A DNA stretch of 64,000 nt from Candidatus Danuiimicrobium aquiferis (lineage in GTDB: Bacteria; Omnitrophota; Omnitrophia; Omnitrophales; Danuiimicrobiaceae): assembly GCA_001804285.1 (NCBI GenBank), contig MHFR01000008.1, forward strand, positions 2,740 through 66,739. Reading direction: 5' to 3'. The notes under the pieces are model-generated. The model was given only the letters and a program-made list of their open reading frames with translations, searched no databases and was not told where the DNA came from. Below are positions 6,731-63,769 of this stretch, piece by piece. Position 1 is the first letter of the stretch, and each line of letters begins with the position of its first letter. The translations under genes and the position numbers were made by a program.

Positions 6731-6789
6731 ATTTATCTCGATACCATTTAAGGGCGATAATATACAGGAAAACAATTAATTGCGCCAAT

Positions 6790-12800: not shown

Positions 12801-15800
12801 TGCCCTCCTTCTTGAGAAAAAAGAGGCGGACTTAAAACAGGCCGGCCTTCGCGGTCAAAAGAAATATGGATGCCGAGACTCATCACCTGATCCATTGACA
12901 TATCTCGGACATGAAACGCTGTCGTTCCCCAAGAAGCCCCGAAAAATCCTTGCCCAAAGTTTTCTTTCTTGAATAACACTCCCGTAATTTCCACGGCATC
13001 CATCTCTTCACCGTTGACAACAACCGGTTCCTTCAACGCTATGCGAATGGTCCGGCCTTCGGCCTTGTTTTCCGTTAATTCTTCGTACCCGATTCCCTTC
13101 CATTCATCCGGATAATAAGCAGAAGCTTTTTCGATTTGCGCTTGCAGTTCCGGTGTTAAAGCTTTCCATAGATCGGGAACGTAAGTCATTTCAAGGGGCC
13201 GTGAGCCTTGCCATTCGGCCGTTATTAATGGATCCGTGATGGGGTCAACCACATTTTTTCTTGCCGCCAAAAAGGCGAAGGTGTCTTCCGCCAGCCATTT
13301 CGCTATTTTTTCTCCAATCCCGCGGATTTTATTTTGGGGATCCTTCAGCCATTTCTTGAATTGATCCGCATGATCAAAACTCCGCTCGCCGATTTTCGCA
13401 ACCAATTCCTGAATGACTTGCTCTGATTTGACACCGCTCGCTTGAAACACTTGAGCAATTCTGGCTTTTATCACTTCATTCCAGTCAATCGCACCCGCCC
13501 AAGTTTTTTCCGCACTATCATTATTGAAGCGACCTTCGGACCGACTAAATAACTCTTTATATTTATCCACATTAATCGTCACATAATCATCATAATTGGC
13601 ACGACGACTATAAGTTTTGACATAGCCTTCCTCTTGCAAACGGCGCAAAAAGCCTTCCATTGAAGATGCCTGAAAAACCCATGAAGATATGTTACGAGTC
13701 AGAGCCAGATAGCCTACAAGCAATTTCATAATGCCCCTTCTTTGAGGCATACTAAGTGCTGAAATAACAGAAATTGATCCGGAACCATCAATTTTATAGC
13801 CGACAGAACCAACCACGTTACCATCCGATAGGTTCATCACCGCTAAATGAAACATTTCGCCGGTCCTGGAATGGTGAACAATGAGAAATTTGACAGAAGT
13901 ATTCAAAATTTGTCCCACCGCTTGTTTTAACCGCTGTTCAAGCTCCGCATTCTCTTCCAATTCCCGCATTTCGGAGCGGCGAGCATCGGAATTCTGTCTC
14001 GGTCTTTGTCCGGATAAATACTCATCAATTGAAACTCGCCTTAGTATTTTTTTCAAGCGGTTAAACGTATGCCTGATCGAGCCGATAGAGATACCGGTTC
14101 TTTCTGACAAAGCGTCCATGCTCGAGAGCACAAAACCTTGATCGAATTCTTCCAAAATTCGGTTTGCGACCCGTCGCTCTTTGACCGGGAAAGATTTAAT
14201 CGCTTCATCAACGATTATTTCCAGCATGAAACGCCGTTCCGTTTCGGACGCCCGAAAATCATCAATGGCGGCTATCAGAACCATTTTGCCGCCGATATTA
14301 GCCCAATCCTTCCTCAACCCTAATTGCGAAAGGGTCAGGAAATCTTTGTACGACCTTCTCTCTTTCACAAGACCAACTTCTTCATATTTGATCTTGTTAG
14401 CATTTAACGCGTTGTATATGACGAAACGATTTTCAACTAAACCTTCCGAGAAATCGACCACGTTTCTGACGGTGGGCGCAATGTCCGCCGGCACTTTAGA
14501 AACCAACATTTTAAGAAAACTTTTCCGCTGATCCTTGGTTTTCGGCAACACTCTTTCCCTTACCAAGCCGAGCTCTTCGTAATTCATATCGTGCGTATTC
14601 ATCGCCGATCGAATTTGCCGGGCAGTAACCGTTCCATTCGATTGATCCGCCACATTGTTCACCGTTGGCGGAAGCCCAGGAGGTAATTTCTCGATTAGTC
14701 TGCGCAAGAATTCTTTCCATTCTCCTGTAGCTCTGGCTGGGGGCAACGCTTTCTCCATCCCGACTTCCTGGAAAGAAATTGAATGAAAGACAATCGCTGC
14801 GCGAATTTGTTCAGGCGTATGTTTTCCGCCGGAAAAAGCTGCGACATTTCTCGCGGTTCGCTTCAATCCGGAAGGAATTTTCCCTGCAATAGCAGAAAGT
14901 TCGGCAATCCATTCTGAGCGCGACCTTTTCAAATCTGTTTCATTTATCATCCCGACTTCTTGAAAAGTAATTCCGTGGTAATATAAGGCGTGCCAAATTC
15001 CAACCCCCGTTACTTCCCGGCCCGAAATATCCGCAACATTACGCGTCGTAGGTAGAGTGCCGGCCGGTAATTCCGCGACCCTGGCTTTTAAATATGCAAT
15101 CCATTCCTCTCGAGACTTGAACTCCCTGGTACTACGGGCCATTCCAACAGTTCTGTAAGGAATATCGTGCTTCCACAATGCCATTGTAATTTGCCGCTCT
15201 GAAAGAAAACTTCCCCACACGCCGGCGAGAACTTCAGGTGTTGCCGCTCTCCAGTGAGGAAGAAGTGTCACAAGGCCTTTTAATAATCTGATCCACTCAT
15301 TACGATTTTTTTTCTTCTTTCTCAGCAGCTGTTTAAGCTCTTTCCCGATAGCGGGACTCACCCGTTTTTCTCCTCGCGTGTCTCTCATTCTCTTTGCGCG
15401 ATCAGCGAGGCCATAATTCTGGATGCGCTCCCAAACTGTTGTCATATTGACATGCATACGTTTTGCCATCTTTTCCAAATGAGCATGATATTTTGCAAGC
15501 AATTTTTTAAAACGCTGCAGTTGAGAACGGTAACGCGCGGCGTTTTTCTCAAGCCCGAATCGCCTGATTTGACTGACAATAGCAGAACTCTTAACTCCTC
15601 CTAAATCTTCCGAGACTAATTTTAGATTCGCGCCTCGTTTTCTTAAGAGCTGATTCAGCACACCTTTGGTCACCCATCCAGCTTGTCTTGCCCGCAGCTC
15701 GGCCCTTGGCGAAACACTTTGTACACGCCAAGGACTCTCGTTCGTTTCGATTGATGACTGATTGGAACTTTCTTTATTGTTACGAACTTCGGAGCGATGC

Positions 15801-18800
15801 CTCAATGCATCGCCCGAAACAGTCTCGGATTTAACCGAAATCCGAGGCGGCTCGGACATCGCAACGGTTGGTTGCGATGCCGGAGCAGTCCTTAACTCCG
15901 CTCGCGATTCGTCGTGAGCTTCGGCATGGCGTGCTTGACTCTGCATAATACCTGTGCTAAATTTACTACCAATATGAGTACGTTGGTCCGAAAATATATC
16001 AGTATCAATCCTGCTATCTGCCATGGAAAGCCCTGTTTTCGCGGTACCCGGATTCCTGTATCCTTGATCCTGCAAATGCTTGAGGGGGGCGACTCTGTCA
16101 GCGCCATTCTGCGCGGATATCCTTCCCTTTCCAAGAAAGCGATCCAGGCTGCGTTGGAGTTTGCCAGCGAAGTCATTGACAAAAACCGTTTGAGCGCCCG
16201 TGTCCTCGCTGCTTAAATTTCGAATTCTCGCCGACGAAATGATCCACCAAGATGTTATCCGGTTGTTGATCAGTTTAGGAAGCGACGTTATCAGAACTCC
16301 AAAAGGATTCAAAAATGGCCAGGTATTCCAACTCGCAAAAAAAGAAGCGAGAATCTTACTCACCCAAGATAAAGACTTTTCCGACAGTAAACGATATCCA
16401 CCCTCTCTGACTGCAGGAATCATTTGCTTGCGCGTTTTTCCGCCGACCATCGCCAATCTGCTATCCCATGTCAAGAAATTCATCCATAAAACAACACCGG
16501 CTGACATCAAAGGGGAACTGACCATCCTTTCATAAAACGCGATCCCACGCCGCGTTTCGGAACGGCTTTCGCGTTCCTGCTCCCTTTTTGGCTGACTGTC
16601 ACCTGTTCGCAATCCGGAGGCATCAAGAAAACCACCTTGACTGTGGTTGAAATACAGAGCGACATCACTCAGTTTGCCACTACTGACAATAAGCCTTAGC
16701 GCTTCAAACTGGCCATAAAGAAAGCGCACATTTTTTTTCAATGCCCGGTATTTTGCTGTACTGGGAAACCAAGCTAAAGTTGCTTCGATTATTCCAAGTG
16801 CGGTATCCAAAGCATGTCCGACCATAATATCTCCCGACAAAGAACGCTCCTGCCTTTTTCTGCCGATTTTTCTGCCAACGATCGGATAAACAACCTCGGA
16901 CAACGGTTTCTTAATCTTTTCCAAAGCCGTCATGAATTCGGAATCCAATTCGCCGACTTTTGCTGCGTCACCCGCGTATCTCTCAACAAGCGTTTCAAGT
17001 TGAGGCCGCAGCCGGTCAATTTGATCCAGCACTTCAAGAATCGCTTTTTCATCCTGTTCAAGTCCCTCAACCTTGCCTTGCCTCGCTTCGGATCTTGATG
17101 CGGTACCTTGACTAAAAACACCTGCCGTGATAAACTCCCGCAGAGGTAAAACGAATGGACCCTTTAATCCAAAAATATCTGATAATTGACTCCAAAATCC
17201 AACACGGAAAACCTTGCTTCCGGGGAACCCGGATTCCGGTTTATGCGGTACTTGAGCTCTTAGAGGGCGGGGTGAAACCGGAAGAGATTGTGGGCGAGAA
17301 TTATTATCCGAATCTAAGTCTTGAACATATCCGAATTGCATTGCGCTTTGCAGCCCAATGGGCGAAAAACCAAGAATACTTTCCTTTTGAACAAACAACC
17401 TGAGCTTTTGAATGAAATTCCTCATTGACGAGGACATTCCCCTCAAACTCCTCAAAACACTTCTAACGCTTGGCCATGACTGTGTCCGCGCAACACCGGC
17501 TTCATCGGATCTCGAAGTGGTTGAGCGAGCTGAAAAGGAAGAAAGAATTCTGATCACTCTGGACAAAGACTTCACTAATATCACGATATACCCGCCGACG
17601 AAATTTAATATCGTCCGAATCCAAATCCATCCTCCGTATGCCGATACGATTATCGAAGCATTCCAAAAACTCTTAAATTCCGTTCCAGCGAAGGACTTCC
17701 AAGGATTAATCATTCTCCAGCCCAAAGGCCATATCCGCGTCATTCCGTAAACACGTTCCCGCGGCACTTCTAATCTCTGATTTTCCCGCGCTTCGGCCCT
17801 TGAACTGACTGTCATCCTGAGGGAGTCCGAAGAACGACTCTCCGCCACTAAAGCGTGGGCGGATCCGGCCGCGCTGTTTGGCGGAGAAGGATCTCCGGTT
17901 ATTGTCTCTGTCCGTGGCTTCCCCCCGGGCAAGCCCGGGGCACCTTTCAAAATCTGGCCTCGCTTGGAATTTTCTCTTTCCATGCTCGGCACGCCCTTCG
18001 GGCGCCATTCACCCCCGGGCAAGCCCGGGGAGCTCAAAGCGGCGTTTAGATCCTTCGACTCGCTCCGCTCGCTCAGGATGACTCCGACCCTACGCAGCTC
18101 GGAGCGGATCCCTTCTTTGATCCAAATAGATCCATCCGTCGGCTTTCCATACGACTGGCTGTCATAGAATGCACTTTCTATCATGTTCATGTCGAAAAGC
18201 TGGTTCATCCGAACACGGTGATATCCTGGGAAATTGGAATCACCCCCTTGGAAAGAAATCACGATCGGCGGGAATACAGTCCCTTCAGAAAGTATCTGTC
18301 CAAAATTCAAATCAGCTTTTTGTAAATAATAAGTTGTCCGCTCTCCGAAAATATCTCTGAAATCACCTTTCTTTGAAAATTCACGTTCATGATAAACAAT
18401 CGTCCGATTTACCGGTGGCATCCGGTTGCCGTATGACCACTGAAAACGGATCTCATAGTCATTCGGATTTCCACCCTTAACCACTTCAATATTGGTTGCC
18501 CCCAACGCTTCTAATTCCCACAATATCGGGATTTTGGTGTTTCCGATTGCCCACAAAGCCGGATAATCAATATAACCTTTTACAAGTAAACTCGAGCGGT
18601 AGGCCTCCTTCAATTCCTTGACATCTTTCTCCTGCACATCAAAACCAAACGGCAACGCATCATAGAAATGCATTTCTTTTGCATCCGTCATCAAAAGAGG
18701 CGCGATCACATCTGCGCCAGAAAACGGATAACTTAAAACGCCACCATCAAATCCGTTCTTCTTCAATTCCGCGTGGATCTTCGCATAAGCCAAAGAGACC

Positions 18801-21800
18801 GCCCCTGAGATGAAACGGTTTTCTATAGCTGTCCTGTGAATGAGCAGTTCTTTCGGAAAACGTTTAGACTCAAACAATCTCCGTGCAGCCATATGAAATA
18901 GAACTGTTTGGAATTGAAAAGTTTTTTCAAGAAGAATTGCTCGATACACCTGCTGTTCAACGGTGAATGCTAAGCCCACTAAACGTGCTCTCTCTTCCGG
19001 TTGGTTTCTCAACTGTGGAAAAAATACTTTCAAAATCATATCATGCGAACTTTTTCCGATTGTAAGCACCAGTGGACCATCAGGAGTTAAAGGATCTGCT
19101 TTCGCTATATCAAGCCGCTCGCGAATCAATTCTTTGACAAAAATTCCTTCGGTTTCCAACCTTGTCACAATCACTTCATCTGGATTTGAAGGCATTCGCT
19201 TTCCACCTGTAGCGTCTTTAGTCCCAAGCCTGGGAAGAAGAAATACTTGAAATAAGCGAGCCCGGTCATCATCGTTCCCCGCCAAAAGATCGATTCTTTT
19301 CTTGGCTTGGACAAGAAAATCGATAACATCTTTAAGCGGATCTTCATGGTTAACTTCCTCTAAACGATCAACCCCCGGCGTCGCAAACGATTTTAAAATA
19401 TAGGCTGCCAGCTGTATTAGCTTTTGAACTGACGAGTCGTCATCGGCAATTTGATTTCTTTCCATCTGACCTTTCAAAATCTTTAACTGACTGCGTGAGA
19501 TTCCGTAAAGCTGCGTCTGCTGTCTGCTTTCTGCATCTAACAAAGCTTGTATAAAACGAGGACCTGCTTTTTGATCGCGTTTTAAAAGCCCTTTATCAGC
19601 CGCAGCGATCAAACGATCAGCTGTTTTGACAAGTTGAGGAACCGATTCTACCGTTTGCCCATCGAGCGAGCGCACTTCGGCACGTTTGGCTAACACATGG
19701 TCCGCCAAAGTACTCTTGCGCGTCTTGATTGATGCCTGGTTGGAACTATTGTCATTGTTACGAACTTCGGACCGTGTAACGAGTACGGCGCGTTTAAGCC
19801 ATTCGTCGAAATGTTTGAGCGCCTCGGCGGAGACAGCGAATCCATCTGTTAGAGCCTCGCCCGACAAAAGAATTTTATTCCGCCCGGACAAGTATGTCTC
19901 GGTAACTAACAATGAATCTAAGTAAGACTCAAATCCGTTCGGGTCTTCCCGGTATTCTTCGTCCCCATCATCATCAAACAACATCTGATTCATTTCCGTT
20001 TCGATTTCAGTCATCGCCTCATCAAGAATATCCATAAAAAGATTTAGATCAATCCGCGTTTGCTGAAGGCGTTCTTTTGCTTCTATTTTGATGGTGGCCG
20101 GAAGTTCTTCGTTATACCGAATACTAAATTCCCGCAGCAAGTCGGCGTTTGTTGCCAGCGAAATCCCGAAATGTTCTCGCTTTATTTCTTGCATGAAGCG
20201 CAACGCGTGTTTGGCTGCTAACTCAGAGATCAAATCTATCAGCAGCGGGCCTTGCTCAAGTTGTGCAGTCCCTTGCTCTTTTGTTGTCGGATAATCCACC
20301 AAATCCGTTCCACTTTTCCGCATTCGCTCATGAACTGAATAATTCCGGTCCAGCATTTTTCGATACGTCTTCTTCAACACTTCCTCCGCCGCATAGGGTG
20401 TTACCGTTTGAGAATGTGTTGCATAATAATCTGTAAGCACCTGGCTGAATCGAGCCCTGAAGCTCTGTTGATGCGATAGAACCCCACTGAATAGTGTGTC
20501 GTAAAGCCCCCGAACCTCGGCCCTGGCAGTGGCAGTCTTCTGCCCGCGCCACAACTGCCAGGACACTTGCGCGCCTGGTTGAATCTCCGCTTTTGTATTA
20601 TCATTATTGAAGCGCGCTTCGGCCCTCGCTCGGTTCCTTTGTGCATCGCGAGGACTCTTATTCGTCACAATTGATAACTGGTTGGAACTACTTTCAAGGT
20701 TACGAACTTCGGCCCGGGGAAAGATACGGGCCCGTTTGAATCGCTCTGCTTTATTCCCTCCCATTTGTTCGGGAGTAGGAGATGTCAGGCCCATCGATGT
20801 GGCTGTCAATTCGCCGTCAACGACAGCAAGGGCCCGCTGCTGATGGTCTGCCGCTTCTCTCGCCAATGAAGCGAATCGGCTACGATCTTTTTCACCAACA
20901 TCTTCTCCTGACGAAAAAAAGTTGGTGTCAAAATCTCCGGCCCACGGCGCCAGATAAAGCAAGACGTCGATTCCTATCTTGTATTGTTTTGAAATTTCCT
21001 TTAGCGGCTCTAAAAATATTGTCGTGGTATTTCGGTGGTGATGATGCCGGTCCTCCCAATGCGGAAGAATGACCGACCACGAAATGCCGTCCGCACGGCC
21101 CGATTCCAACGCCGCCCGGTGTTGGCGGTAAAACGTTTCGAGGCGCTTTTTCATGCGGGCCGTCGCATCCTGAATCGCCCAGTCCGGCGCCAACCCAATT
21201 CCCCGCTGATACGCGGCAACTTCTTCATCGAGCCACTTCACTCTGATTTTGCCGGGCAATCCTTCCCGCAACACCGCGGCTTCACCCGCTATTTCTTTCC
21301 GCCGGATGACACGCCGCATCAATTCTTCAATTTCAAAATTTACCGCCTCACCCACTTTCCAATTCTGAATGAAACGGAGAAGTTTTTCGGGATTCGCAAA
21401 ACAATTTAGTTTTTCTCTGATCACCGGATCGATCTGAGTTCCTTTTTTATCCAATTCCTGAAGCACTCTTTGATAAAATGCATGGACATACTGAATGGTG
21501 CGGTAGAAACGGCTGTTGGGCCGGTACACTTGCTTAAGCTTCCTCATCGCCCAGCGGATTTCCTCTTCTTTGAAATCTGCCACACCCGTGTGGCCCGATC
21601 CGGCCACCCAATTTTCGACCTTCATTCCTTGGCCTAACGCATCAATCATGGCAGCGGCCGCCGCGACCACATCGTCGTCAGGATGAGGAGAAGCTATCAT
21701 CAACGGAACGTCCTTGTTCAAACGAAGCTGAAAATTTTCCTGAGCGTTAACAATTTCACCATTCTCAATCCGTACCACAGTAAACGGATTTGCATATTCA

Positions 21801-24800
21801 ACGTCATCGCCCAGCGCTCCGTCCAGTCTTCCTCTGAGAGCCGCGTAACGCGCCATTTCTTCAAGAATTTTCAGAAAATCAGTCCGGCGCAATTGAGTGT
21901 CTTGACTTCCAAACCCACGCAGGGCTTTTGTAAATCCGGCGCGCGAAAGCGGAAAATAAAAGTTGGCGACATTTCCCATTTGGTAAGATTCATAATAAAG
22001 AACCGTCACCGGACCTGCGCGGGCATCCGCATACGATTGAATAAACTTCTGCACCCACGTATCGTTATGAAATCCGTCATACGGAGCCAGAATCAAATCC
22101 GGCTGAAAATTGCCAAACACTTCACCTGGCGTTTGTTTTAAATCAAAAGCAAACTTGCGGACTTTATTTTTCAATTCGGACGATTGAATGGCTTTGACAA
22201 ATTTCCCGGCCGTATGCGCCGAGCCGCCCGGTTCCAATTCAAGGAGAGCAATATTCAGATTGTGCGGCAACGGAAATTGCTGGACCCTAACGTCAATTTT
22301 CTTATTTGTTAAAATCACTCCTCCCTTCACCTCGTCAATCTTCCAATCAACGTTCTGTATTTCAGCACTACGGATTTCGGCCCTTGGCGAAACACTTTGT
22401 ACACGCCAAGGACTCTCGTTCGTTTCGATTGATGACTGATTGGAACTATCTTTATTGTTACGAACTTCGGAGCGATGCCTCAATGCATCTCCCTCAGCCA
22501 AAGGCTGATCCGCCTCTGGCGGAGAAGCAGTCCCGCGCAGTTCAGCGCGGCGCAGCTCTGCGCGGTTATGATCGCGACTTCCGCTCCCGGTATCCCGTCC
22601 CGGATAGCCGGGCTCTTGATTTTCTGTGGTTTCTGGCCCTGTCGTGCCGGGTGCCCCGGTAGTAGCTTTTTTAAGCAGCTGTCGCAATACTGAAACGGTA
22701 CTCCCGTCGCGGGGAACCAATCGGAGGGCTTCTCTCGCCTGTTGATCCATAATCCGGTCATATGCCTGCTGGGTTTTCCGCATCGTCTGGAAACCTTGGA
22801 AGTTGATGAGAGGCCTAAGCGCTGGAAGCACAAGCGCCATTCCAAAAGATGTCACGAACCATGGGAGAGAAAAAAGCAGCATTAATAGGAAACTGAGAAT
22901 CGGAATAACAATCAGAGCTGAACCCAAAAACACTTCCATTCTTAAGCTCTGCAAATACTCCCGTTTCGCATCATATCTGTTTTCTATTGCTTTTCCGATT
23001 TCATCCCCGGCAAGAAGTTCGCCGGCCTGGTCGCGACGCGCCGGATCGGAATGGACTTGAAGAACGACTTGCAAATACGCGAGTAAACTTTCCCATTCGT
23101 TCATTAAAAAGAGACGGTGGAACACATGATCAAAACCATGAGAGAAAATACTCGCAACAAAAAAGAAATATGCCGCAATCATCGACCAGAAGCCAAAAGC
23201 CACGAACGTATTTAGCGCCGGCATTAAAGGCATAATCGACCGGAACATATAATACATTCCATAAAATAGCACTCCCGTCCCAAACGCCCATTGGGTCAAT
23301 TTGGGGCTATAGGTCCGGAACCAATTGGCAATTCCCGTGAATTCATGCTCAAACCGCAAAGGCGCGCCATAATGAAAAGGGTCGGTTTCCCGCTGCGCTA
23401 AAATGTGTGACAACACATCCGGCGGCCATCCTAATTTGCCCAAACGCTCAATTTTGGTCCGCAAGGTTTTTGCATCGTCATCCTTCTTCAACCTATCGAG
23501 GACCGGCGCTTCTTCAACGATTTTTCGAACCTGAGCGGTCTTGTCTGCTTCACTGCCGGCGGATTGTATTAAATGGACTGCCCATTCACGCCACAAGATC
23601 TGACGCGCCCACAAATAGATGCCCCTCGTGGGAACAAGATCGTCCAGGTCATAACCCATCGACCGGGAATCAAATCTGACGCGGGCTTCCAGCGAAGAGC
23701 CATCGATGTCCATTGAATCGATAGGCGTCATGAGCAAGTTCTGAAGCTCCATCAAACGCTCATTTCTGTTTGTTTCGATGGGCATCGTAAACAAAACCGG
23801 ATAGGGCCAGCCGGTTTTCATTCTGGTCAAAGTTGTCGCGTGCTCAAGGCCCTGCTCGGTTGCGAGTTGCAATCCGGAGATCATCTTTAAGATCATATCT
23901 TTATGTTGGGCAAATAATTGTCTGAGCGGCGCAAGCGATGGCGAATGGTCCAAATCCGCATCGCCGGCTTCATCCCACTGAAGCGCCTCCAAAACATATT
24001 TTCTGGTTTCCGGCTCTGTCAACTCAGGGAAAATCGCGAGAAACATAACTGCAACTGCAATTTTTAAAATGTTCTTCCTTCCGCCTTCGGAATTCTTTTC
24101 GATTGCCTGAAAAGCAGCCGCCACTTGTCTATCAATCGTCTCGAGAAATATTTTATTCAAAGCGCTGCGATCATTCCTCACATGAAAAGCCATGAGCAGA
24201 AGATGAAAATAGACGTATGCATTCCTGATCTGCGGTGGAAGTTGATGCAATCCGTCGAGCATCTTCCGCCGAATGTCAGCATGCTCGTCTGAAGGCGCAA
24301 GCGCACTTACGAATAACAGAGGAAGAGATATCATGCTTTTTTCGGCCGCCGGATGATAAATCGAAAGGATGTCGTTCAGCTGATCGATTGCGTCTTGAGA
24401 AACCACATCCTGAACGAGCAAGTAATGCGCCGCTGCGAACAAAACTCCCATCGGATCATGTTCGGATAAGCCATACAGCTCAAACTGCTTCCGGAAAAGT
24501 TCGCGGTGTTGTTCGTCTAATCGAGCGGTAATGCCTCGCATCAAGTCCCTATATTGGCCTTCTGCAACCGTCTTTCCAGAGCCTGTCTTCATCACGGACT
24601 TCAGCTGTCTCAACTGTGAAACAATATCAAATGACTGTTCACTCCGCGCTTCGGAGCGGCCGTGAACCTCTGGCAATACAAGGCGAGGCATTTCGTCTGA
24701 CGTAAATACAGCAAATCCGCTTTCTTTCCCCGCCGGCGGCCGGATAGATCCTATAGATGGAAATGGCCGTAAAAATTTATCTTTCACGAGTTCTCTGGCG

Positions 24801-36800: not shown

Positions 36801-39800
36801 ATCATCCCTGTTAATTCTTCCCCAAAAATATTGCCGGGATGCGGATCTGAATGGAAAACCCCATCTGCAAGTGCCGCTAAGACAATGAGCAAAATCAATC
36901 TTCTGGCCGTTCTCCTCCGCAATAAAGGATTTTTCAACTCAGTGGCTTTAATACCTTTAACAAAACTCATTTCTAAAACATTCTCATTGCTTCCGTAAAT
37001 GGCGGGCTTACTGAATCCATCCGGATAGTGTCGAACGAGCTGTCTTGCCTGTTTGGCTTCGACATTCATATTAAGTTCGCGACGGACCGCTTTTTCAAAT
37101 TCCTCAAAAAACCGGGAAGGCGACATTTGAATAGCATCAGCTCCGGTAAATTTCTCCTTCGAGTTTTCCAGTGTCTTAATCACCTCTCTGATTTTTTCTA
37201 AACCGCTTAGGATTTTTCTTTTTTTTGCAGCAGGTACGACTTTCAAAACAACTTCTTGCCCATCGTGAGTTTTCGCAAGAAATGTGTCTGCCACCGTTCC
37301 GACTTTTAATCTTTTTAAATAAGGCATTTCGATTGCCGCACCCTCGATGGGCACCAACGCTTCGACAAGCGGTTTCCCATAGTAATTTTCAACGGAACGG
37401 ACTATCTCCCCCATTTCAGCGGGCGTCCCTTGATCTTGAAAAACCTCAAACGCCTCACGCATTCCTTCCGGCACCAAGCCTTCCCTCGTACTTAAAAACT
37501 GTCCCACCTTTTCAATTCCCGCAATTCTGAAAAATTCCGCATACGGTTGGGCGGCATGCCATTCCAGAAACCGGTCTTGAAGATCTTTTCCGTTTCTATC
37601 GAAAAGAAACAGTTGAAATCCATTTAAGTCCTTTGAGTATGAACTTCCGTCAAATTCACTCAAAAAATCTTGCTTGTTGGTCTCTGCGAAATATCTCCTT
37701 GCCTGCTGATAAAAATAAGTTTGGTCCTGGGAAGGATTCTTTCCATGATATTCCCCAAATGTGTTTAATATTTTTTCCTGATCACCCGCCGATAATCTTG
37801 AAAAGAACTCCCGTAATAAAAACTGCGCCAATTGAGGCAATGATTTAAGATGTTCTGAAAATCGGGCTATTTTCTCCATATCGGGCGGTTTGGCTGTGAA
37901 AACCCAATGCGCAGCATCCTCTTCTTCAATGTGCGGTGTTTGCATCCGACCCGCCAAGTAGCCGTCAACGCTGTAAGGACTAACTCCCAAAGGCAGGGTA
38001 CGGGCCGATGATTGAGGCGCTGAATCGGCAAAAATGGTCTTAACCCGCCCTGTGAATCCGGTCCTGCTGGCAATATAGCCCTCAACCGAGTGAGGTGACA
38101 AAGAAACGACGTCAACTTTTCGAACCTGTGGAACACGGCCCAAACTTTTCAAAACTGCTTCTGCGTTGGATAGATCATTCGGCGTGTTTAAATCAAGCAG
38201 GCCGTTTTCCTCTTTCACTTCATACATTCTTAACAAGTCCGTTCCCATAAAGAAACGGAAAAGAAAACCCGTTCTTACAATTGCGAAACGATTCAACTTT
38301 TTCGTTTTTTCATAATAAGCACGGCTGGATAGCGTATCTTTATGGACAGGGCCTTTAAACCATTGGATTAATTTAAATATAAATCTGACGAGTTTAAAAA
38401 CAAATGGGTGAAATAAATGAATACTGGCAGCAACTTCATGAATATTTTCCAGTTCATCGGCAGTTAAGTAACTGCCATCTGAAAGCTTGAGGCTTCCACC
38501 TTGCTCTTTTAAAAGGTCAATCTCCCGTTGTGTTGCGATTGTGTCAAATCTTCCGTTTCTTAATCGAACGATGCGGTCTACTCCATGCGGCTGAGTAAGA
38601 TGAGTGGTTACAAAGGTATAAAGCGCGGGCCAGCCACGCGGCGGTGAATGAATATGCATGGCATCAAAAATAATTTTCGGATTCGTAATGATCACATCTG
38701 CCGGCACGATCAATATGTGCTTGGACCTAAATTGATCTTGATATAAATCATACGGGGTAAATGCGGCATTCAGAGTACCAATATTGACCGGCACGACGGT
38801 GCTATGCGTCTGTTTTGCTGCTTCACTCACTCGAGAATCCGCTTGCGGATGCTCACCATTCAATACGGACACAAAAGATGTCAATCCGATTTCATCTGCT
38901 GTATCCAAAAAATACCGCATAAGCGGCTTCCCTGCCACATTTCTAATTTGTTTCGGCGTGGTATCCCCATCTGAAAACATCCGGCCGCTCGTTCCAGCAG
39001 CTAATTGAATTGCAACCCAAGAACTTAATTGATCTTTTCTGTCATTTTGTTCGCTCAATTTCTGAAAATCATAATGATGGACATCAAGAACAAAACGATA
39101 ATCAGGGATGAAAGGCGTAAACAGTGATGCTATCCGATTAGGAACAAGTAGGTGCGCTAATATCCATGCCACAAACCAATTCTTTTGATCAATCCGCGTA
39201 CTTCGAAGCAAGTGTTGCTGTCTGGCTTTATTAATGTCCTGTGCAACAAAAAGAGTTTTGGCTGCCCTTACCTTTTCGAAGAGAAATTTTGAAAATGTTC
39301 CTTCAATGATGATCATGGTATTCGGTTTTAGTGATTCGGAATTGATCATGTCTTTATTTAGGGCTTGCGAGAAGGATTGAATCTTTTCTTCATCAACATA
39401 ACAATTCGCAAGATAATGGATGAGTATTTTTTTCACGGTTTTACTTGGAATAACGGAAGCAAACAAACTGAAGGCAAAACCAAATAAAATCTGAAATACT
39501 AATTTAAATCCCCATGCCCGTGTTCGAGAAAAATCGCTCGTTTTGACCAGAATTACTTCACGCCCTCTTTGTTTTAAGAATGCCTGATATTCTTTGGCAA
39601 ATGTTGATTTCCCAACGCCAGGGACGCCATCTATCACAAGAATGAGATTCCGTTCTTTATCCTTCAAGAGTGAGGATGTTAATTTCTCAAACACTTGAAT
39701 ACGTTCAGAAACTGTTCCCACAGCGGCAGAAGATTCATTCCGTAGCTCGGAGCGAGGATTCATTTCCTCCTCGCCTGGAGCAGTCATTGACTTAACCAAA

Positions 39801-42800
39801 GTCAAGGGCATTTCGGCACGTCCGCCTTCGGCGGGAGTTTCGTTGCGCACTTCGGCCCTCGCAAAAGACTGCGAGGACACTCCCGCGCCGCGATCAATCA
39901 TCGACTTGGCACTATTTTCAATGTCGCGAGCTTCGGCCCTTGCAGCGGCATCATCTGGTCTTCGCCGCAACTGCAAGGACTCTTGTGCGTTTGGATCGCC
40001 CAAAACGGGGACAGGTTCTGATTTCACTGATACAGAACCTGTCCCCGTCTTTGGCGTGAAGTTGCGCACTTCTGACCGTCCTTGATTCAAATTTGAAATG
40101 AGTTTTTCGACACGCGGACGAACGGCTGACCAATTTGCATCGGCTTGAATCAAGTCGAGTAAATATCTGATTCGCGCTTCGACCTGACTGCTCACACGGG
40201 TCAAATACGGAATGTGATATTCGATTAATGAATTCACGAGCGCTTCGTTTTCTGAACGCACAAGACTGCGAACGAGAAGCGCAACAGCATCATAAGGATT
40301 ACCTTGATGGAATGGTTGTTCCTGATTGATCCAGCGCGTCACGTCCTTTGCTTGAATTTGATCAAGCTCACCCGGAACAACAAACCCGGCAATCATCAAT
40401 TCATCCGCCGGATCGTTATAACGCGTCATCCTGCGCGCACGGTTAATCGCAGCCGCCGCTTCAAGCGTTAGCAACTCACCGATCGGCACTTTAAAAAGCA
40501 TCTGCCGGTAAAGCTCAATATAATTTTTCGTTCGATTCAGCCAGCGATTATCCTGAATCAGCACTTGATACCGAATTTCACGTTCCGCCGCAGGATGATC
40601 TGCAAAAACCGTATAATGTTCGCGAGCCGATTTGAACCACTCAACGGGATTAAACAATTGAAACGCTTCAGCAAAATGAATATCGCCTTTATTAAAAGTA
40701 ATGGCACTGTCTTTCAGACCGTCCCGCCACGTTAAATGCCGAGGGACGCCGTACGCCGCAGCTTCTTGATTGCTGAGTCCGCCCGGTTCGAACGAAGACG
40801 GCATTCCGAACCGATCGGACCCCGAATAAATCAGTTCATAAAACGGTTCACTCGGTTCCACACGTCTGCCGATGTATCGAAATTGATTCGGAAAGCGAGC
40901 AGCGATATCGCCAAAACCTTGATCGTAAAACCTCCCTTTGTCCACAGCGCCGGCAATCACAAACTGTAAATCCGGATTCAATACCATGGCAACCTCAGCA
41001 GCCCGAAGTGCCCCCCGTTGATTTGTCCACGCATAGTCTTGAAGCTTTTTTTGCTCTTGGGCAGTAAGTTCATGGGCAATCCCCATTTCTTCAAAAAATC
41101 CTCCCGCTGTCCGCAAAATACCGGACTGATCGCCGCCGCGCCAAATTTCTGCCAGCAATAATTGATGCCCTTTTTGATCTCCGATCCGGTGCAGCATCGA
41201 ATAAACAAACTTTTCGCGATTCGTTTCTAACCCCACGGCCGCTTGAAGCCTTGCTTTTTGCAAGGGTTGGATGAACTCCGTAACCATGGCCGCAAGTTTT
41301 CTGCGTTCGGAGTCGTGCCCGATTTCCTGAAAACTGCGGATTGCCAGGTCCGGACGCGCCAGCACTTGCTCCAGCCAGTCCCGGTACTCAGGCCAGTCCT
41401 TATTCCATTCGTGATCATTCATTTTCTCGCGAATGGAATCTTGCACGCTAACCATGTTGAAGAAAGTTATCTTAAGTAATTGTTCGCGGCGGCTGAGAAT
41501 CGCATGTTTTTTTTGCCGATATTCGTCCGCACTTTTGGCTTGAATGTCTGAAATCTTACCGAAGGCGTCGTTCGGTTTTAAGATACGGTGGATTTCGCCG
41601 TAACGGTCATCATTTTCAATCACATTCTTAAGCGCCGCGAAAACGGCTGACGGGTTATCAAGCACGCACCGAATTAAATTCTCAAAACTTGTAAATGTTC
41701 TTTTCATCGCCGGCATTTTCATTATCTTTTTCATTTTGCGCCTGAGGTCGTGATTTTCGGAAAACATTTTTTTCATAAACGTCCGCTGACGCCCCACTAA
41801 ATCGAAGCCGTTCGGTGTGCCGTCATACGCACCCTTCTTTTTTGTCCCCGTCTCCGGATCAACAACTTCCTCTTCATTCCTTTGATTGAGCAGCGCGACT
41901 AAGTCCCCAAACTCTCTCGTGTACAGATCCACTAAACTTCGATCGTGATAGCCGCCGCTGACGGTTCTGAAATGGGCCGCTGTTTTAACTGCCGTATAGG
42001 CCGGATTAATGACATTCCACTCGCCAATATTCACTAAAATATCCCAGTCGGCGGACGGCCACATACCCAGATCGCTTACGATCATCGCATCACGTTCGGC
42101 TTCGTTATCCGCCGTTATACGGCCCTGATAAGCCCAATGGAGACTATGCCCGGTCGAAAGTACTTTCGTTCTATTCAAGTGCGGATCATGTTTCAATCCG
42201 GTCAAACCCGGATCGATGCGATCTCTCCCGTCAAGATATGCTTTCACGTAAGCGGTCGCCCAATCATTTGTATGAATGACGCCGGCGTGAATATTCATCT
42301 CGCGAATCGCAAGAAGCGTCCCCAAAGAAAGCATCCGTGCAAACCGGAGTTTGAAATTTTTCTTCCCGTCATACGCACTCGTGTCTCCTACTCTCAGGCG
42401 ATTGAAATAGCGGTCGTTTTCCAAATAAAGAACGCGGACTCCCTCGATATACGCTTCATAAATTTTCATTTCGGCGGATTCTTCCCCGTGTGCGCCGAAT
42501 TTCACCGTCACCGCTCGGCCGGTATCTTGCGGATGATATTTTGCAAACATCGTATGCTTTTCATTCCAGAACATCGGAACAACAACCGTCACCGGAATTC
42601 CTAATCGTGCAAGCTCTTTCGCCTGATCGCTGACATAAAAGCCAAGACCGCCGCTGCTGACGCTCCAATCCGATTCCGGAGAAGATAAAACGACCTCTCC
42701 GATATCATGTCCTCTCAATATCTGAATCGCATGAAATGACGCGTGCGGCGTAGCAGACCTGGTTTCCTCCGCAAATCGGACAGCAATGTCGATCAACATT

Positions 42801-45800
42801 TTGTGAATTCGCTCTTCAAACTCTTTACGATAAATCACAACATCATGAAATAAACTCGTCAGATCCCCGATCCGGATATCCGGATTCTTCACGACCAAAT
42901 CAGACAGCATATGGAATAATGACCCGAAAACAGCCGGATTGCTCCCGTTGATTTCAAGCGCCCGCGTAAGTTCACGCGAAGCGAAACTGCTCTCGAACCG
43001 GCCCTGAGAACCATATTTTTTGTAGCGGAGAAGCGAGTCTCTCAGGAGTTGCTGATACGCGGCGTTTCCAAATTTCGGAATCGTTTTACTTTTCCGGAAG
43101 AAACGAAGCGCCTTCGTCTCAAAAATATCGAGTGGCTTCCGAAGTCCCAAACCGAGGTTAGCTATTTCCCTCCCCGTAAACTGCATCCTTCGGATTCGTC
43201 GACTCTTGGCGCCAGAAGAAGGAATTTCGCGTAATTCATACACCGCGTCATCATCAAACAGGCCGAGCCCTTTTCCGTTCTGCATCGCGTCATCCGGATG
43301 AAAATTAATATCCGCCGCATAACGGGATCCTTGATGTGAAAGAAATAGAAAAAACTGATCGTCTTCAATCGGCTGGGCGATTCCTAAAACGCGGTCATGT
43401 CCGGCATCAAACGCAATCGGCCGATGAGATTCGAAAGCAGCTTCCAAATCCGGAACCCGCTTCGCTAACTTATCAAAATGCTCCTCATACCACGAAAGCG
43501 CGGTTTGTCCACCGGTTCTTACTTCAGACCGGGACATCGAACCTTCGGTCCCGCGGTGGTCCTCTTTTAAATACATCGTAATAAAAACAATTTTTCCGCT
43601 GACGCGCTCATTAACGCGATCTCCCGTCCTCCTGACAAGCCCTTCGTAATCAGCTACTTCGACATTTATGAATTCGGTTGCGTCGCCATAATTTTTCAAA
43701 TACCGAAGGAGTGATTGAACAACCGCTGCATATTCGGCAGGTGGAAAGGAGAACCAGCGCAATTCGTCTAAATCAGGGTGGCTCCATCCAGCTCCACGAT
43801 CATAATGAATCGAAAACGCGTTGATTCCGTGCGAATTATTTCTGTTTTCTGTCATTAAAACCCGTCTCAACTCTTCCATGCTGAGAACCCGCCCCACATG
43901 CAAAGACTCCACGTTATTGACTTCGCGTATCCCTCCTGTTTGAAGGCGGAGAAGCCCGGGCTGATGAGACGCCCATTCCGGCTGGCCACTCAACGCCCTC
44001 GCTTCGGCCCTTAACGCCGATTCATTCGGCGTTGTGAAGGGACGAGCTGTACTCGCAGCAACCTTCTCGTCAATACGAGGCTGCGAGTGCGCTTCGGCTC
44101 TCGCTTCATGAGACACGAGACGCGAAACAGGAGACACGTTTTCACTTACCGCTTGTCTCATGTCTCTTTCCCCTTCTATGCGCACCTCAGCCCTCGCTAA
44201 AGAGTCATCACCCGCAGACAGCCCATGAACTTCAATCGCCGGACCATCCGAAATTAAGTCTGTTTTTCCCAATTCGGTCAAAACACTCTGGATGACCGCT
44301 CGAATTTCACTCCGGTGATATTCGGCATCTTGGAGACCAATTTTTTCGCGCATCACATTCAGCGGAATACGCGCCGGACTTGACTGCGGAATATGCGAAG
44401 TGGCCGGCTCAAAGCTTGGCTTTAACAACATCCGTTCGTCATAGATAGTTTGCGGAACAATAGAATGAATTTTCGGAGAAACAGTGAGAAACGGAACGGA
44501 TCGGCGCTTCATCATAGCTTCAAATCCATCCGTATGAAAACCGCCGGTAACCAAGATTGATTTTGCATGCTTTCTTTGATGCCTGGCCCTGAGATAATTG
44601 CGAAACATCATTTTTTCCCGCTGAAATGCAAGCGTGTAGAAGCGGAGGCATTCGGTAAAGAGCGCGTTGAACTGATCATCATTGAAATTCGCACTCTTGC
44701 TATCCCCGCCCAGCTCCTCTGTCATTCCCGCGAAGGCGGGAATCCAGCTGGATCCCCGCTTACGCGGGGATGACAACCGTTCCATCATCACATCCGGCAT
44801 CAACTCTTCTTTTCTTTTCACCACGCTTTGAAACTCGTCCCGTGTTAATTCGAGAGCAAAAAGAGATTTCAGCAATTGATAATCGTCGATCGTTTTGACA
44901 AACGCCCGCTCTTTTTCGTTCGTAGTCAATGCATTTAAAATTTCATCCGTCAGCTTTTTAGTTTCTTCGTGAATTTTATTCGCATCAAGTTCTTCGGCAA
45001 GTACCCGCCCAGACCAATAATGAACCATGCGGGGATAGGATGAAAAAGCAAAACCCTTATTTGCCGCTTCCAAATAAAAAGATTCCAGAAGTGCACGGGT
45101 ATTTGTCAACTGTCCTTCGTCCCCGGGCTTCTGAGAATTTCGTTTAAAAAGATATTCATACCGGGTTATCCAGCTTCCTAAATCGTGCTTTCTGATCCAG
45201 TCACTCAGCTGCGTCTCTTCCTTTTGATATTCAACTTCCGGAATCTTCCGGGATTCTTTTTCTAAATCCTGCATCGTAAAATACCGCACAAGCTGCGGAT
45301 GTGTGATTTGATGTTTGGCTTCATGCAAATCCAAATCTATAAATTTCGCGGCCGACCTCCCCAAAAACTCCAGGTAAGAGGCGAACTCGGCGGAATCATT
45401 TCGGTAACTTACATATTCGCGCACAAATTCCCTCAGGTTTGAATTAAGCGCGGTTGCCTCAACATTCTTTAATTGTTCTGCCACGCTCGCCAAATATTGC
45501 TCTGCGTTTTTCTTTTGCTCGTATACTTTTCTGAAACTGAATAAGTTTTCCCGGTAAAGATCCGCGTCTTCAAGCCCATAAAGCTTGACACTCCCCTTTT
45601 GCTGCAGGTGAAATAATTCAACCCCGCCGATTTCTCCGATTTCCAGTAACCGTTCGGCGACTTTTTTATTCAGCGAATCGTCTTTAAAAAAACGGAGCAA
45701 GTCGGGAGAAATTTCACCGGCGAGACCGCCTTCCAGAAAAATCGTGTCAAAGCCATACTCGCTTTTCAGGTGAGACAGTAAATTTCCGATATTTTTCTGC

Positions 45801-46081: not shown

Positions 46082-46298
46082 CTGCCTATCAAAACCGTCC
46101 TATTCGCTAAAAGAATTCCCCTTGCATGACCTCCTATAAATTATTGTTTCTAATCTGGTTTTATTAAGGGGTTGATTAGTTTTGAAAACTGTTTAAAAAG
46201 TATACCATTAAATCACCTAATAAGCAAATCCCGCTGAAAATTTTTTGTTTTCATAAGTCGCTCAAATTAAAAGAGTTAGGAGTTGAAAGCAATCAATT
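46082..46298 (-). promoter_or_regulatory. AT-rich intergenic region upstream of the giant gene, presumed to hold its promoter and RBS.
   Basis: This is 217 nt of non-coding AT-rich sequence between the PDZ gene stop (46299) and the giant-gene ATG (46081). The weak SD TAGGCAG lies 3–9 nt upstream of the ATG. I cannot assign −10/−35 boxes confidently. Confidence 0.35.
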
Positions 46299-47345
46299 CT
46301 ATATGGGATTGATTTCAAGGTGCTTTTCGGGAGTGATGGAAATTGACAATTCCCGTCCATCCCGCTTAATCAAAAAAGATCTCGGGGTACCAGGAACAAC
46401 CTTATCCGCATTTTGATAATAAGTAAGCCAACTCATTAAAGGTCTTCCCTCCTCAGATACCAGAATATCACCGACTCTGAGTCCGGCAACTTCTGCAGGA
46501 CCTTTTGGCAAAACCTCAGTCACCAAGAATGCGTTTTCAATCTTGCCATAGTCAGCTTTAAACCCGAAATAAGGGGTATCGGAAGGAAAATAAAATGCGT
46601 TAATGTCTAAATCAATGACATTTTTTTTCCTCTCAAGAGAGAACTTCACTTTTCGCGTAGAATTAATTCCGGCCAAGGTTTTGAAGAAATTATGGACATC
46701 AACGTCCACTCCATCTAATTTTAAAACAATATCACCATTCCGGAAGCCTTGCTCCGCCCCGAGGCCGCCGTCATCGACATTGGCTATATAATATTTAAAT
46801 GTTGTTTCGTCTAAATAAAAATCACAGCCAACCACAATATGGGATAAATTCGGATATTTTCTTTGAACCAATAGTGCGCTAACTAATCCGCCCAAACGAT
46901 TTTCAAATACACCTTTCGAACTATCATGCCATCCCTTCTTGACGAGATAACTTCTTCTTGCACGTTGAAAATCAGGAACTATCATCAGCTGGCTGAGATC
47001 TTCCGATTTCCGACTGACCTTAATCAATAGCGTGCAGAAACCCGAAAGTGCCCAACTAGATGTTTTGGCCCATGCGCGATACTCACTACTACGAACCGGA
47101 AATTCCATAGACGTGATGGCTCCTGTTTGTTGATCGCTTGTTTGAACAGGAATAAAATCGTTTTTCAGAATTTCGTCAATCACACCCCATAACTCGTCAT
47201 ACGTTGCCGGATAGGTAAATGTTTTCGATGACAAAGGTCCGCGCTTGAACGGATTGCTTAACGCAGATACTTCGGGGGACAATAGACATAAAAAAAGCAA
47301 GCTGCCCACCAAAATGGACAACTTGCTTTTTTTAAACATTTTCAT
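46299..47345 (-). CDS. Secreted protein with two PDZ domains.
   Basis: The signal peptide is MKMFKKSKLSILVGSLLFLCLLSPEVSA. The PDZ-like cores are GFRNGDIVLKLDGVDV and GLRVGDILVSEEGRPL. Confidence 0.65.
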   Translation of the reverse strand: MKMFKKSKLSILVGSLLFLCLLSPEVSALSNPFKRGPLSSKTFTYPATYDELWGVIDEILKNDFIPVQTSDQQTGAITSMEFPVRSSEYRAWAKTSSWALSGFCTLLIKVSRKSEDLSQLMIVPDFQRARRSYLVKKGWHDSSKGVFENRLGGLVSALLVQRKYPNLSHIVVGCDFYLDETTFKYYIANVDDGGLGAEQGFRNGDIVLKLDGVDVDVHNFFKTLAGINSTRKVKFSLERKKNVIDLDINAFYFPSDTPYFGFKADYGKIENAFLVTEVLPKGPAEVAGLRVGDILVSEEGRPLMSWLTYYQNADKVVPGTPRSFLIKRDGRELSISITPEKHLEINPI

Positions 47346-63767: not shown

Positions 63768-63769
63768 TT

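Follow-up and report, generated by a model that had tools for sequence, protein, structure and literature searches.

Peptide delimiters, hairpin filler and inserted selfish DNA at the module joints of a 39-kb gene of Candidatus Danuiimicrobium aquiferis

We analysed a stretch of 64,000 nucleotides (nt) from Candidatus Danuiimicrobium aquiferis (Omnitrophota; assembly GCA_001804285.1, contig MHFR01000008.1, positions 2,740 to 66,739 of the forward strand), in the following termed the window, with a focus on a giant open reading frame (ORF) on its minus strand and on the hairpin-forming repeats between the domains that it encodes. The gene holds selfish DNA in its joints, it has a delimiter that is selected at the peptide level at every module boundary, the hairpin filler around these delimiters evolves at the nucleotide level, and the reading frame is kept open throughout. 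The best explanation for the whole is, in our view, a multi-enzyme giant protein with delimiter-separated modules, in which hairpin filler and inserted selfish DNA lie in the joints and pass a filter for an open frame; we assign this reading a probability of about 0.6. An initial annotation of the window, based on the letters and their translations, had described the repeats as one family of REP/MITE-like elements (repetitive extragenic palindromes or miniature inverted-repeat transposable elements) and had left the choice between a gene built by fusion through element-containing spacers and a mobile element that is tolerated only in-frame.

The giant ORF (6851-46081, minus strand) encodes 13,076 amino acids (aa) in 23 modules and runs for about 39 kb without an in-frame stop, with 679 and 796 stops in the other two sense frames. 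The coding-like frame is frame 0 in 633 of 650 windows along the ORF. Its domains are mostly of cytoplasmic type and mutually unrelated according to matches to Pfam and PDB sequences, and include a GT5/GT1 glycogen-synthase-like glycosyltransferase (GT), a P-loop module, a GlmU-like NTP-transferase, an ABC1 kinase, an NAD-epimerase, helix-turn-helix repeats and a methyltransferase, as well as a weak match to PIG-L. A search with the epimerase module returned distant free-standing epimerases only (23-28% identity), and the sole homologue of the N-terminal module, P0157, carries the annotation Candidatus Omnitrophota. Rifle scaffold_313 has the same gene call of 13,076 aa, and identical sequence is found in Rifle groundwater assemblies (MHFE01000018.1, ERZ4903137 and others). 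A MEGAHIT contig from five samples matches at 100% identity over 14.2 kb and yields the same 3,732 C-terminal residues on translation, which rules out an artefact of a single assembly as the cause of the read-through.

Twenty-two linker zones divide the protein into its 23 modules without cutting a single Pfam domain. All of them are read on the minus strand and are, from the N- to the C-terminal end, as follows:

43997-44314, minus strand: linker zone 1, RSEIR...RAEVR...RAEAR, with three delimiters.
43517-43531, minus strand: bare delimiter RSEVR.
39740-40078, minus strand: linker between the GT and P-loop modules, with four delimiters; it holds a palindrome with 24-nt arms at 39997-40056, whose GGGGACAGG core is common to an intergenic palindrome family.
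35551-35689, minus strand: linker between the ABC1 kinase and the epimerase, RAEVR..RAEV..RAELR plus SQPTVAMSE hairpin; the kinase modules of the homologues P0008 and P0009 stop at this boundary.
34179-34432, minus strand: linker after the epimerase, with an RSEVR-type 105-nt module, VSWQLWR hairpin, RAELR, ADQPLAE hairpin and SQPTVAMSE hairpin.
32054-32224, minus strand: linker RSEVR...RAEL...ISVKSE hairpin, GDALRH hairpin, RSEVR.
25829-26014, minus strand: linker RSEVR...RAEAR.
24644-24658, minus strand: bare delimiter RSEAR.
22370-22564, minus strand: linker RAELR-RAELR, ADQPLAE hairpin, GDALRH hairpin and 105-nt RSEVR..RAEIR module, with 98% identity to 15699-15815.
20510-20716, minus strand: linker with a 105-nt module (RAEVR..RAEAR), VSWQLWR hairpin and RAEVR.
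19670-19774, minus strand: linker consisting of one 105-nt module, RSEVR..RAEVR.
17786-18106, minus strand: linker zone RSELR...RAEAR, occupied by a MITE-like element.
17081-17095, minus strand: bare delimiter RSEAR, which closes the slot of antisense pair b.
16550-16564, minus strand: bare delimiter RSETR, which opens the slot of antisense pair a.
15692-15904, minus strand: linker RAELR, SQPTVAMSE, ISVKSE and GDALRH hairpins, 105-nt RSEVR..RAELR module.
13964-13978, minus strand: bare delimiter RSEMR.
13529-13543, minus strand: bare delimiter RSEGR.
11654-11668, minus strand: bare delimiter RSEAR.
10940-11239, minus strand: 90-aa mini-module between two RSEVR delimiters.
9372-9472, minus strand: linker RSQVR-SEMR plus GDALRH-type hairpin, which carries a compensatory change from C:G to A:T that turns the next motif into a degraded LSDLR.
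8396-8551, minus strand: linker RAEAR...TPAEGG hairpin...RAELR, with an AT-rich inverted repeat at 8431-8530.
7841-7855, minus strand: bare delimiter RSESR.

All 16 sites listed in the initial annotation proved to be real and coincide with these independently mapped zones, they lie between domains as had been stated, and the peptides quoted for them (RSEVRNNKDSSNQSS..., SQPTVAMSE, ISVKSETVSGDALRH and IPAFAGMT) are the actual translations. Seven further boundary sites (7841-7855, 10940-11239, 11654-11668, 13529-13543, 13964-13978, 16550-16564 and 17081-17095) and the two antisense gene pairs at 15914-16535 and 17155-17750, which are described below, were absent from it.

The delimiter is a pentapeptide, R-[S/A]-E-hydrophobic-R. 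The corresponding pattern, R[SA][EQ]xR, was found at 43 sites compared with 1.3 expected; 42 copies stand in the frame of the giant gene, the remaining 6,438 aa of the window have none, and the other frames approximately none. It is present at 22 of 22 mapped module boundaries, many of which carry two to four delimiters, and eight boundaries show the bare pentapeptide without a hairpin. Position x is V, L, A, I or M, mostly one of the first three, and is encoded by unrelated codons. Arg is encoded by AGR as well as by CGN codons, with free variation at their third positions. In five homologous 105-nt modules the codons of the motif have changed synonymously only, including AGG<->CGT at a homologous Arg, and outside of the motif the same modules are saturated with nonsynonymous change. 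An excess of the hexamer KCC-GAR is likewise confined to frame 0 (77 vs 30 expected), with counts at expectation in the other frames, on the other strand and outside the giant gene.

A distant relative allowed us to view the delimiter in a different DNA context. Contig L075 (3300037810 Ga0376277_0010104; 59% GC) was found via the N-terminal module and is 25-30% identical to the giant protein where the two can be aligned. Its giant protein contains five delimiter sites in 3,302 aa (0.39 expected), a number that none of 2,000 shuffles reached. The Ser codons of these sites vary, one pair of sites stands 17 aa apart with a hydrophilic spacer in between, and one delimiter stands where the homologous N-terminal module ends. 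The L075 delimiters show no enrichment of hairpins. This enrichment of the delimiter in unrelated DNA and without hairpins is decisive for selection at the peptide level: the delimiter is under selection as a peptide. The recurrent core of the modules is hence a protein motif with synonymous-site variation, which is the outcome that the initial annotation had itself set against its view of the modules as mobile REP/MITE-like copies.

The filler between the delimiters is made up of short and perfect palindromes in mosaic arrangement, which are translated as SQPTVAMSE, ISVKSE, GDALRH, SPWR..SPRAE, VSWQLWR, ADQPLAE and TPAEGG, and the order of these palindromes varies from linker to linker. Differences among filler copies are spread evenly over the three codon positions (81/66/73), codon differences are nonsynonymous in 118 and synonymous in 14 cases, and the codon usage of the linkers is non-coding in appearance. 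By comparison, the stems are conserved. In the filler, 90% of stem cells are paired compared with 75% in shuffles (0 of 500 shuffles reach 90%), double changes occur in 5 of 10 stem pairs (reached by 1 of 500 shuffles), and pairing with slid partners, used as control, amounts to 38-50%. Nucleotide-level evolution, as suggested in the initial annotation, is thus upheld for the filler and not for the delimiter motif.

Stable hairpins are enriched at the sites: among the 165 windows of 40 nt with the most stable folds (top 2%), 96 are located no more than 100 nt from a delimiter, where 29 are expected (3.3-fold). This enrichment, together with the compensatory changes that preserve the stems, would also fit hairpins that act in the messenger RNA (mRNA), by translational pausing at module ends or as exonuclease barriers, with the delimiter as a by-product. 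The stems are 7-10 bp long, purely Watson-Crick and equally stable on both strands, so that neither a sense-strand bias nor G-U usage points to RNA, and the lack of a strand bias makes functions at the RNA and at the DNA level inseparable. Rfam yielded no family match in the window. With the hairpin-free delimiters of L075 and the eight boundaries without a hairpin also speaking against it, we regard a primary role in the mRNA as improbable.

A mobile REP/MITE-like hairpin family that survives in the gene only when it lands in phase could account for the perfect palindromes, for their differing mosaic order, for the KCC-GAR end of each unit, for the GGGGACAGG core that one linker palindrome has in common with the intergenic family and for the high similarity of some copies, which are 97-100% identical at distances of 6-20 kb. 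In addition, genuine elements of another class (the TGTCAT type, see below) do insert in-frame in this window. The copies are read in-frame, as had been stated in the initial annotation, and in one orientation: direct-repeat families join linker sites at spacings that are all multiples of 3, and when the linkers were searched against the window with BLAST, all 58 direct matches inside the gene shared one frame and none was inverted. Matches outside the gene were found for one linker sequence only, the palindrome at 44720-44775, which has intergenic relatives. RSEVR-type copies were found neither in the 25 kb of the window outside the giant gene nor in the other orientation or another phase, yet one alternative frame of the 105-nt module is stop-free when read by eye and could have been used by out-of-phase copies. 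The palindromic units were also not found in 596 Gb of species-representative genomes, in metagenomes of the Joint Genome Institute (JGI) or among 5.8 billion proteins, save for one chimeric fragment of this gene. Since the core motif is kept as a peptide in a hairpin-free relative and stands without a palindrome at eight boundaries, we consider a mobile family to be quite improbable as the source of the RSEVR-type modules. The high identity of distant filler copies suggests that they were homogenised by recombination or gene conversion.

Two sets of matches from these searches were set aside. A degenerate RSEVR-N75-RAE pattern gave 25 matches in the species-representative genomes and 36 in the JGI metagenomes, all of them single chance matches in high-GC genomes. 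The sole linker-peptide match, P0006, was discarded as it derives from contig L031, which has a coverage of 1.5x and is probably chimeric. Within unrelated AT-rich flanks, this contig (ERZ5996431, 1,232 nt) combines pieces of the linkers at 35652-35551, 15904-15699 and 22493-22293, most likely as a chimera across the repeats, although it may be a real recombinant.

Two passages of the giant protein that have the appearance of junk (aa 9433-9662 and 9845-10059) correspond to intact pairs of antisense genes on the plus strand:

17412-17750, plus strand: DUF5615 / Mut7-C-type PIN-like gene of pair b (Pfam 4e-18).
17155-17403, plus strand: DUF433 antitoxin-like gene of pair b (Pfam 2e-18).
17108-17136, plus strand: promoter-like TTGACT-17-TAAACT with extended -10 TG, pair b (consensus match only).
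16200-16535, plus strand: DUF5615 / PIN-like gene of pair a (Pfam 5e-13), identical in L074.
15914-16216, plus strand: DUF433 antitoxin-like gene of pair a, likely start ATG at 15974 (Pfam 6e-24).
15935-15963, plus strand: promoter-like TTGACT-17-TAAATT with extended -10 TG, pair a (consensus match only).

In both pairs the antitoxin-like gene comes first, the two genes overlap or are 8 nt apart, the Pfam matches are full-length and the promoter-like sites take equivalent positions. Pairs of DUF433 and Mut7-C/PIN-like genes are described as toxin-antitoxin systems of the VapBC type, with experimental verification for one of them (PMC3834315, PMC5499597). Each pair occupies its own delimiter-bounded slot, as does the MITE-like element, and the two sites flanking pair b have CCGAAGCG in common. 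The genes of the two pairs are only 50% and 30% identical and are therefore not the product of one recent duplication. The locus L074 is identical to the window over the DUF5615 genes of both pairs.

The frame of the giant gene is the sole stop-free antisense frame of each of the four genes, the other frames having 1-11 stops. When synonymous codons are sampled according to local usage for unchanged proteins, each antisense gene would be expected to have about 4 stops; for the gene at 17412-17750, which is identical in L068, L069 and L074, the figures are 0 observed and 4.7 expected. The giant frame remained open in 0.06-0.8% of the codon-randomised trials per gene, which amounts to 7e-11 jointly. 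Together with the linker contents, which are all stop-free and in phase, this result supports the in-frame selection filter that the initial annotation had proposed as one of its two readings. L068, an allele with 98.5% identity that comes from another groundwater study, shows 13 differences in the DUF433 gene of pair b, each of which is synonymous; the same differences alter 12 residues in the giant's reading and the frame is still open. The stop avoidance in this allele was rejected as independent evidence, as its chance is 0.31 for 13 synonymous differences and it carries no weight alone. The inserted antisense pairs are under purifying selection as proteins, and the host frame across them is merely kept stop-free. 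By analogy, such nested toxin-antitoxin-like pairs may protect the repeat-rich giant gene against deletions that recombination between its repeats would cause.

A second kind of selfish DNA is represented by elements with TGTCAT...ATGACA ends, three of which are read in-frame and two of which are intergenic:

17811-18082: MITE-like element of 272 nt, read through in-frame; its ends GTCATCCTGAGGGAG / CTCGCTCAGGATGAC are inverted, and its interior contains two CCCCGGGCAAGCCCGGGG palindromes.
44720-44775: 56-nt palindrome (TGTCATTCCCGCGAAGGCGGGAATCCAGC / complement), read in-frame as SSWIPAFAGMT inside the N-terminal module.
58568-58700: element of 133 nt, bounded by TGTCATTGCGAG / CTCGCAATAACA, that is inserted in-frame into the HATPase_c domain encoded by a histidine-kinase gene (58341-59810, minus strand).
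2763-2839: intergenic TGTCAT-type palindrome copy.
50508-50607: intergenic TGTCAT-type palindrome copy.

Their inverted ends measure 12-31 nt with 85-93% complementarity, and another variant of the terminus is carried by L069. When the kinase element (44 aa) is deleted, HATPase_c gives one continuous match of 97.9 bits compared with 86.6 bits for the split one, and the L075 homologue shows a 13-aa gap opposite the palindrome at 44720-44775 in an alignment that is only 25% identical. No clear target-site duplications were apparent on reading the sequence by eye, which was not a systematic analysis. Having terminal inverted repeats, dispersed intergenic copies and evidence for empty sites, the three in-frame TGTCAT-type elements, and only these, behave as true MITE/REP insertions. 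The class has no nucleotide similarity to the RSEVR-type modules, so the single family of the initial annotation has to be divided: 44690-44780, most of 17760-18170 and the kinase site belong to the TGTCAT class. For the kinase, the in-frame read-through was correctly described and the assignment to the same family as the RSEVR-type modules was not.

Two observations on this class stand on their own. An indel of about 30 nt distinguishes assemblies at 50595-50625 (window vs L002, MHFE01000018.1); it lies inside the intergenic palindrome at 50508-50607, which implies that TGTCAT-type elements are polymorphic within the population. Further, the homologue P0009 (1,411 aa, 45% identical to the kinase module) has at approximately aa 232-242 the peptide 'TVIPAKAGIQL', a translated TGTCATTCCCGCGAA-type palindrome, so that a large homologous protein from another organism likewise contains an element of this kind in translated, in-frame form.

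Based on these results, we posit that the giant gene encodes a multi-enzyme protein built like beads on a string, with about 23 modules set apart by Arg-(Ser/Ala)-Glu-hydrophobic-Arg. The amino acids of the filler are free to drift and the hairpins are maintained, with recombination or gene conversion probably keeping the linkers similar. Being without protein constraint, the filler allows the joints to accommodate selfish DNA as well, namely two TGTCAT-type elements and two antisense operons with promoter-like sites of their own. Selection for uninterrupted translation, as the stop statistics and the strain comparison suggest, would then filter the contents of the joints: insertions or mutations that close the frame are lost, and consequently whatever persists is open. 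The need for uninterrupted translation might lie in keeping the modules linked or in avoiding polarity on downstream modules. As for the hairpins, they may be of use to the long mRNA or else represent selfish DNA/RNA structures.

As to the delimiter itself, a post-translational processing site, as in a polyprotein, appears to be its most likely role, with a hinge as the alternative. We hold this view tentatively, and our estimate for processing is kept low because no protease was found in the protein or nearby. Cleavage at the delimiters would release the modules and discard the junk peptides from filler and antisense genes. Processing would also explain why junk peptides of 200 aa are harmless and why, in the L075 giant protein, a canonical signal of the twin-arginine translocation (Tat) type, SRREFFRTAGLGGAIAAATMFSNPLSAAG, begins 9 aa after the delimiter-like RREMR. 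Taken further, the gene could be a 'one-ORF operon' for a polyprotein, in which delimiter cleavage frees about 20 enzymes, some of them possibly exposing their own export signals. This extension is possible but doubtful; if true, it would provide the first defined processing motif for Omnitrophota giants and explain how antisense operons can live inside an ORF.

Several points weigh against our reading of the gene. Searches of Pfam at relaxed thresholds, of NCBIfam and of PDB sequences detected no protease domain in the giant, in the PDZ protein encoded upstream or in any neighbour gene, although a protease may be hidden in one of the many modules without annotation or be encoded elsewhere in the genome. 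The Tat signal in L075 is a single case. The delimiter has 0 copies in each of the related multi-module proteins P0008, P0009, P0010, P0013 and P0016. Position 2 of the delimiter prefers TCC/GCC beyond local codon usage, also at isolated sites (7 of 12, p = 4e-4), so that a nucleotide-level influence, or descent from palindromic units, may still play a part. The covariation in the filler rests on only 5 copies, and the unit searches covered the window and public collections, which leaves room for copies elsewhere in the source genome. Finally, the assembly graph branches at 18045-18051, inside the 272-nt element, which concerns the join at about 18051, and the sister assembly MHFE01000018.1 calls a protein of only 9,377 aa. 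With regard to the relatives, P0008, P0010, P0013 and P0016 carry private repeated inter-module sequences, for example a hydrophobic unit of about 100 aa ('SGAGMIPVVREWLGETWARRVQ...') that recurs at several sites in P0010, and repeated lineage-specific linkers thus seem to be a general design feature of multi-module giants.

The joint at 18045-18051 deserves a closer description. One contig ends at 17911 and others begin at 18051, breaks that would correspond to the k-1 overlap typical of an assembly-graph branch. Pair b and the inner part of the element (634 identical nt) are joined to at least three different upstream sequences (loci L068, L069, L001 and L074). L068 and L069 share the downstream sequence and differ in the upstream one, which has stops in the giant's frame; in L069 it comprises the last part of another gene and, after this, a different terminus of the TGTCAT type. 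The 9,377-aa call could be accounted for by a net -1 frameshift located upstream of the TGA at 17949-17947. It is probable that this joint exists side by side in fused and unfused form, which lends some support to an origin by fusion and marks the joints as recombination hot spots. An orthologue search in the JGI metagenomes with the module upstream of the insertions returned nothing.

Fusion of neighbouring genes through palindrome-containing spacers, the other reading of the initial annotation, would turn the linkers into fossil spacers. It is in line with the non-coding-like codon usage of the linkers, with modules that resemble free-standing enzymes, with the unfused arrangement in L068 and L069, where the same downstream sequence follows a different gene ending in a stop, and with L075, in which the homologue of the N-terminal module is a separate 312-aa gene (6634-7572) located 94 nt upstream of the giant ORF (7666 onward, >4,288 aa). 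A peptide delimiter at every boundary, including the eight bare ones without any spacer, is left unexplained by it, and the contigs L068 and L069, which stem from another study, measure no more than 0.8-1.1 kb. Fusion is compatible with our preferred reading as the origin of the gene; as an account in its own right we deem it rather unlikely.

The same breaks, the shorter gene call and the fact that P0007 is a frameshifted fragment might raise the suspicion that the giant ORF, or its antisense passage, is a mis-assembly or a pseudogene. We find this scarcely credible given the MEGAHIT contigs from five samples, the gap-free course of L068 and L069 across 17180-18051, the identical 13,076-aa call on the Rifle scaffold and a chance of about 1e-7 to 1e-10 for a stop-free passage.

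An integron-like system of in-frame cassettes, with delimiter core and palindromes as recombination sites, was considered as well. Every unit, sense or antisense, stands in a delimiter-bounded slot, the linkers are mosaic and homogenised, the stems are purely Watson-Crick and equally stable on both strands, and the segment with pair b recurs in at least three flanking contexts between sites that share CCGAAGCG. Against this, no integrase, transposase or RAYT (REP-associated tyrosine transposase, Y1 type) gene is present among the window's genes, the motif varies at synonymous sites and is kept across unrelated DNA as fits a peptide and not a recombination core, and the array is a single ORF without separate cassette genes. 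A cassette system is accordingly very unlikely in our opinion. Arrays of true integrons resemble the delimiter-bounded gene in that toxin-antitoxin cassettes form small reverse-oriented two-gene modules within a long array of repeat-bounded units (PMC3834315, PMC5499597), and differ in that here one ORF is translated through cassettes on the opposite strand, with no integrase and, in the absence of a formal search for their core motifs, no attC sites noted.

Further known systems share some of the features of this gene. Rickettsia palindromic elements (RPEs; Ogata et al. 2000, summarised in PMC10969869) and other intragenic MITEs are in-frame, stop-free peptide insertions that often occupy permissive sites. 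Exactly this behaviour is seen in the TGTCAT-type elements, of which the giant gene contains two and the kinase, with its split HATPase_c domain, the third; an in-frame 'VIPAKAGIQ' copy is also present in P0009. The RSEVR-type modules differ from RPEs in being limited to one gene, strand and phase and in having a peptide motif as core, and complete antisense operons of 650-690 nt are an insertion type not known to have been described for RPEs. REPs and bacterial interspersed mosaic elements (BIMEs; RAYT-associated) resemble the RSEVR-type modules in their short hairpin-forming palindromes, mosaic clusters and conserved short motif beside the hairpin. However, REPs are extragenic elements that are found in either orientation throughout the genome, and in the sequence available the modules showed neither dispersed extragenic copies nor both orientations.

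Multi-enzyme giants of Omnitrophota have been reported in two preprints (West-Roberts et al. 2023, 10.1101/2023.11.21.568195; and a preprint of 2026, 10.64898/2026.06.07.730766), in which cleavage was speculated upon, cleavage points were stated to be unknown and no boundary motif, palindromic linkers or nested antisense genes were reported. Like these giants, the protein studied here exceeds 10,000 aa and combines many distinct, unrelated Pfam families of cytoplasmic type with several transmembrane stretches; unlike them, it is without the C39, S8 and SecA domains that the preprints highlight. It is also similar to viral and bacterial polyproteins, which have one short conserved peptide per boundary in variable surroundings and tolerate non-functional spacers, with the differences that no protease was found here, that cleavage is a proposal only and that many boundaries carry two to four sites. 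What is new in this gene is the delimiter-plus-filler linker system and the nested antisense operons; in-frame palindromic insertions of the RPE-like type were already known and fit only the TGTCAT-type elements.

A phase-locked boundary motif that is selected as a peptide in two distant lineages provides candidate cleavage points and can be used for cutting giants into modules for structure prediction. The intact antisense operons inside a 39-kb ORF represent a dual-strand constraint in a bacterium and extend the idea of selfish DNA in coding sequence from palindromes of 100 nt to gene cassettes. Our results further suggest dedicated joints without constraint as the places where giant genes grow and where DNA parasites are tolerated.

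Some additional features were noted around the gene. The product of the upstream neighbour (46299-47345) is a secreted protein that combines two PDZ domains with an N-terminal domain lacking annotation. Exposed as a C-terminus, R-S-E-V would represent a ligand of class I PDZ domains, which we mention as a speculative lead. Just 5' of the giant start lies an upstream ORF of six codons (ATG CAA GGG GAA TTC TTT TAG, 46105-46133) with a strong AGGAGG ribosome-binding site, and the giant gene's own start codon has a weak one. A location of this start codon inside a TGTCAT terminus was suggested by an M-S-F-P match and rejected, as the codons differ. Downstream of the giant's stop (6681-6727) there is a C-rich palindrome of 31 nt, CCCCTCACCCCTGCCCTCTCCCTCAGGGAGA, which is identical at 50395-50425 and may be a terminator or another repeat family.

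Other repeats occur elsewhere in the window. A separate family, AAAAGGGGACAGGC, has five copies in both orientations (50425-50441, 50660-50676, 51507-51524, 51546-51563 and 51615-31) that bracket a response-regulator gene (50679-51497); the GGGGACAGG core recurs in the linker palindrome at 39997-40056. An element of about 190 nt with terminator-like hairpins is located 3' of the histidine-kinase gene (58151-58343) and of an AAA_14/DUF4143 gene (63756-63984), and a 94% identical copy stands beside antisense pair b in L068 (867-991). Finally, a 135-nt direct repeat is present at 59959-60093 and 60949-61083 (98% identical, 990 nt apart) and adjoins an AbiEii-type toxin gene (61553-62329; Pfam 4e-15), in a region that looks rich in mobile and defence genes.

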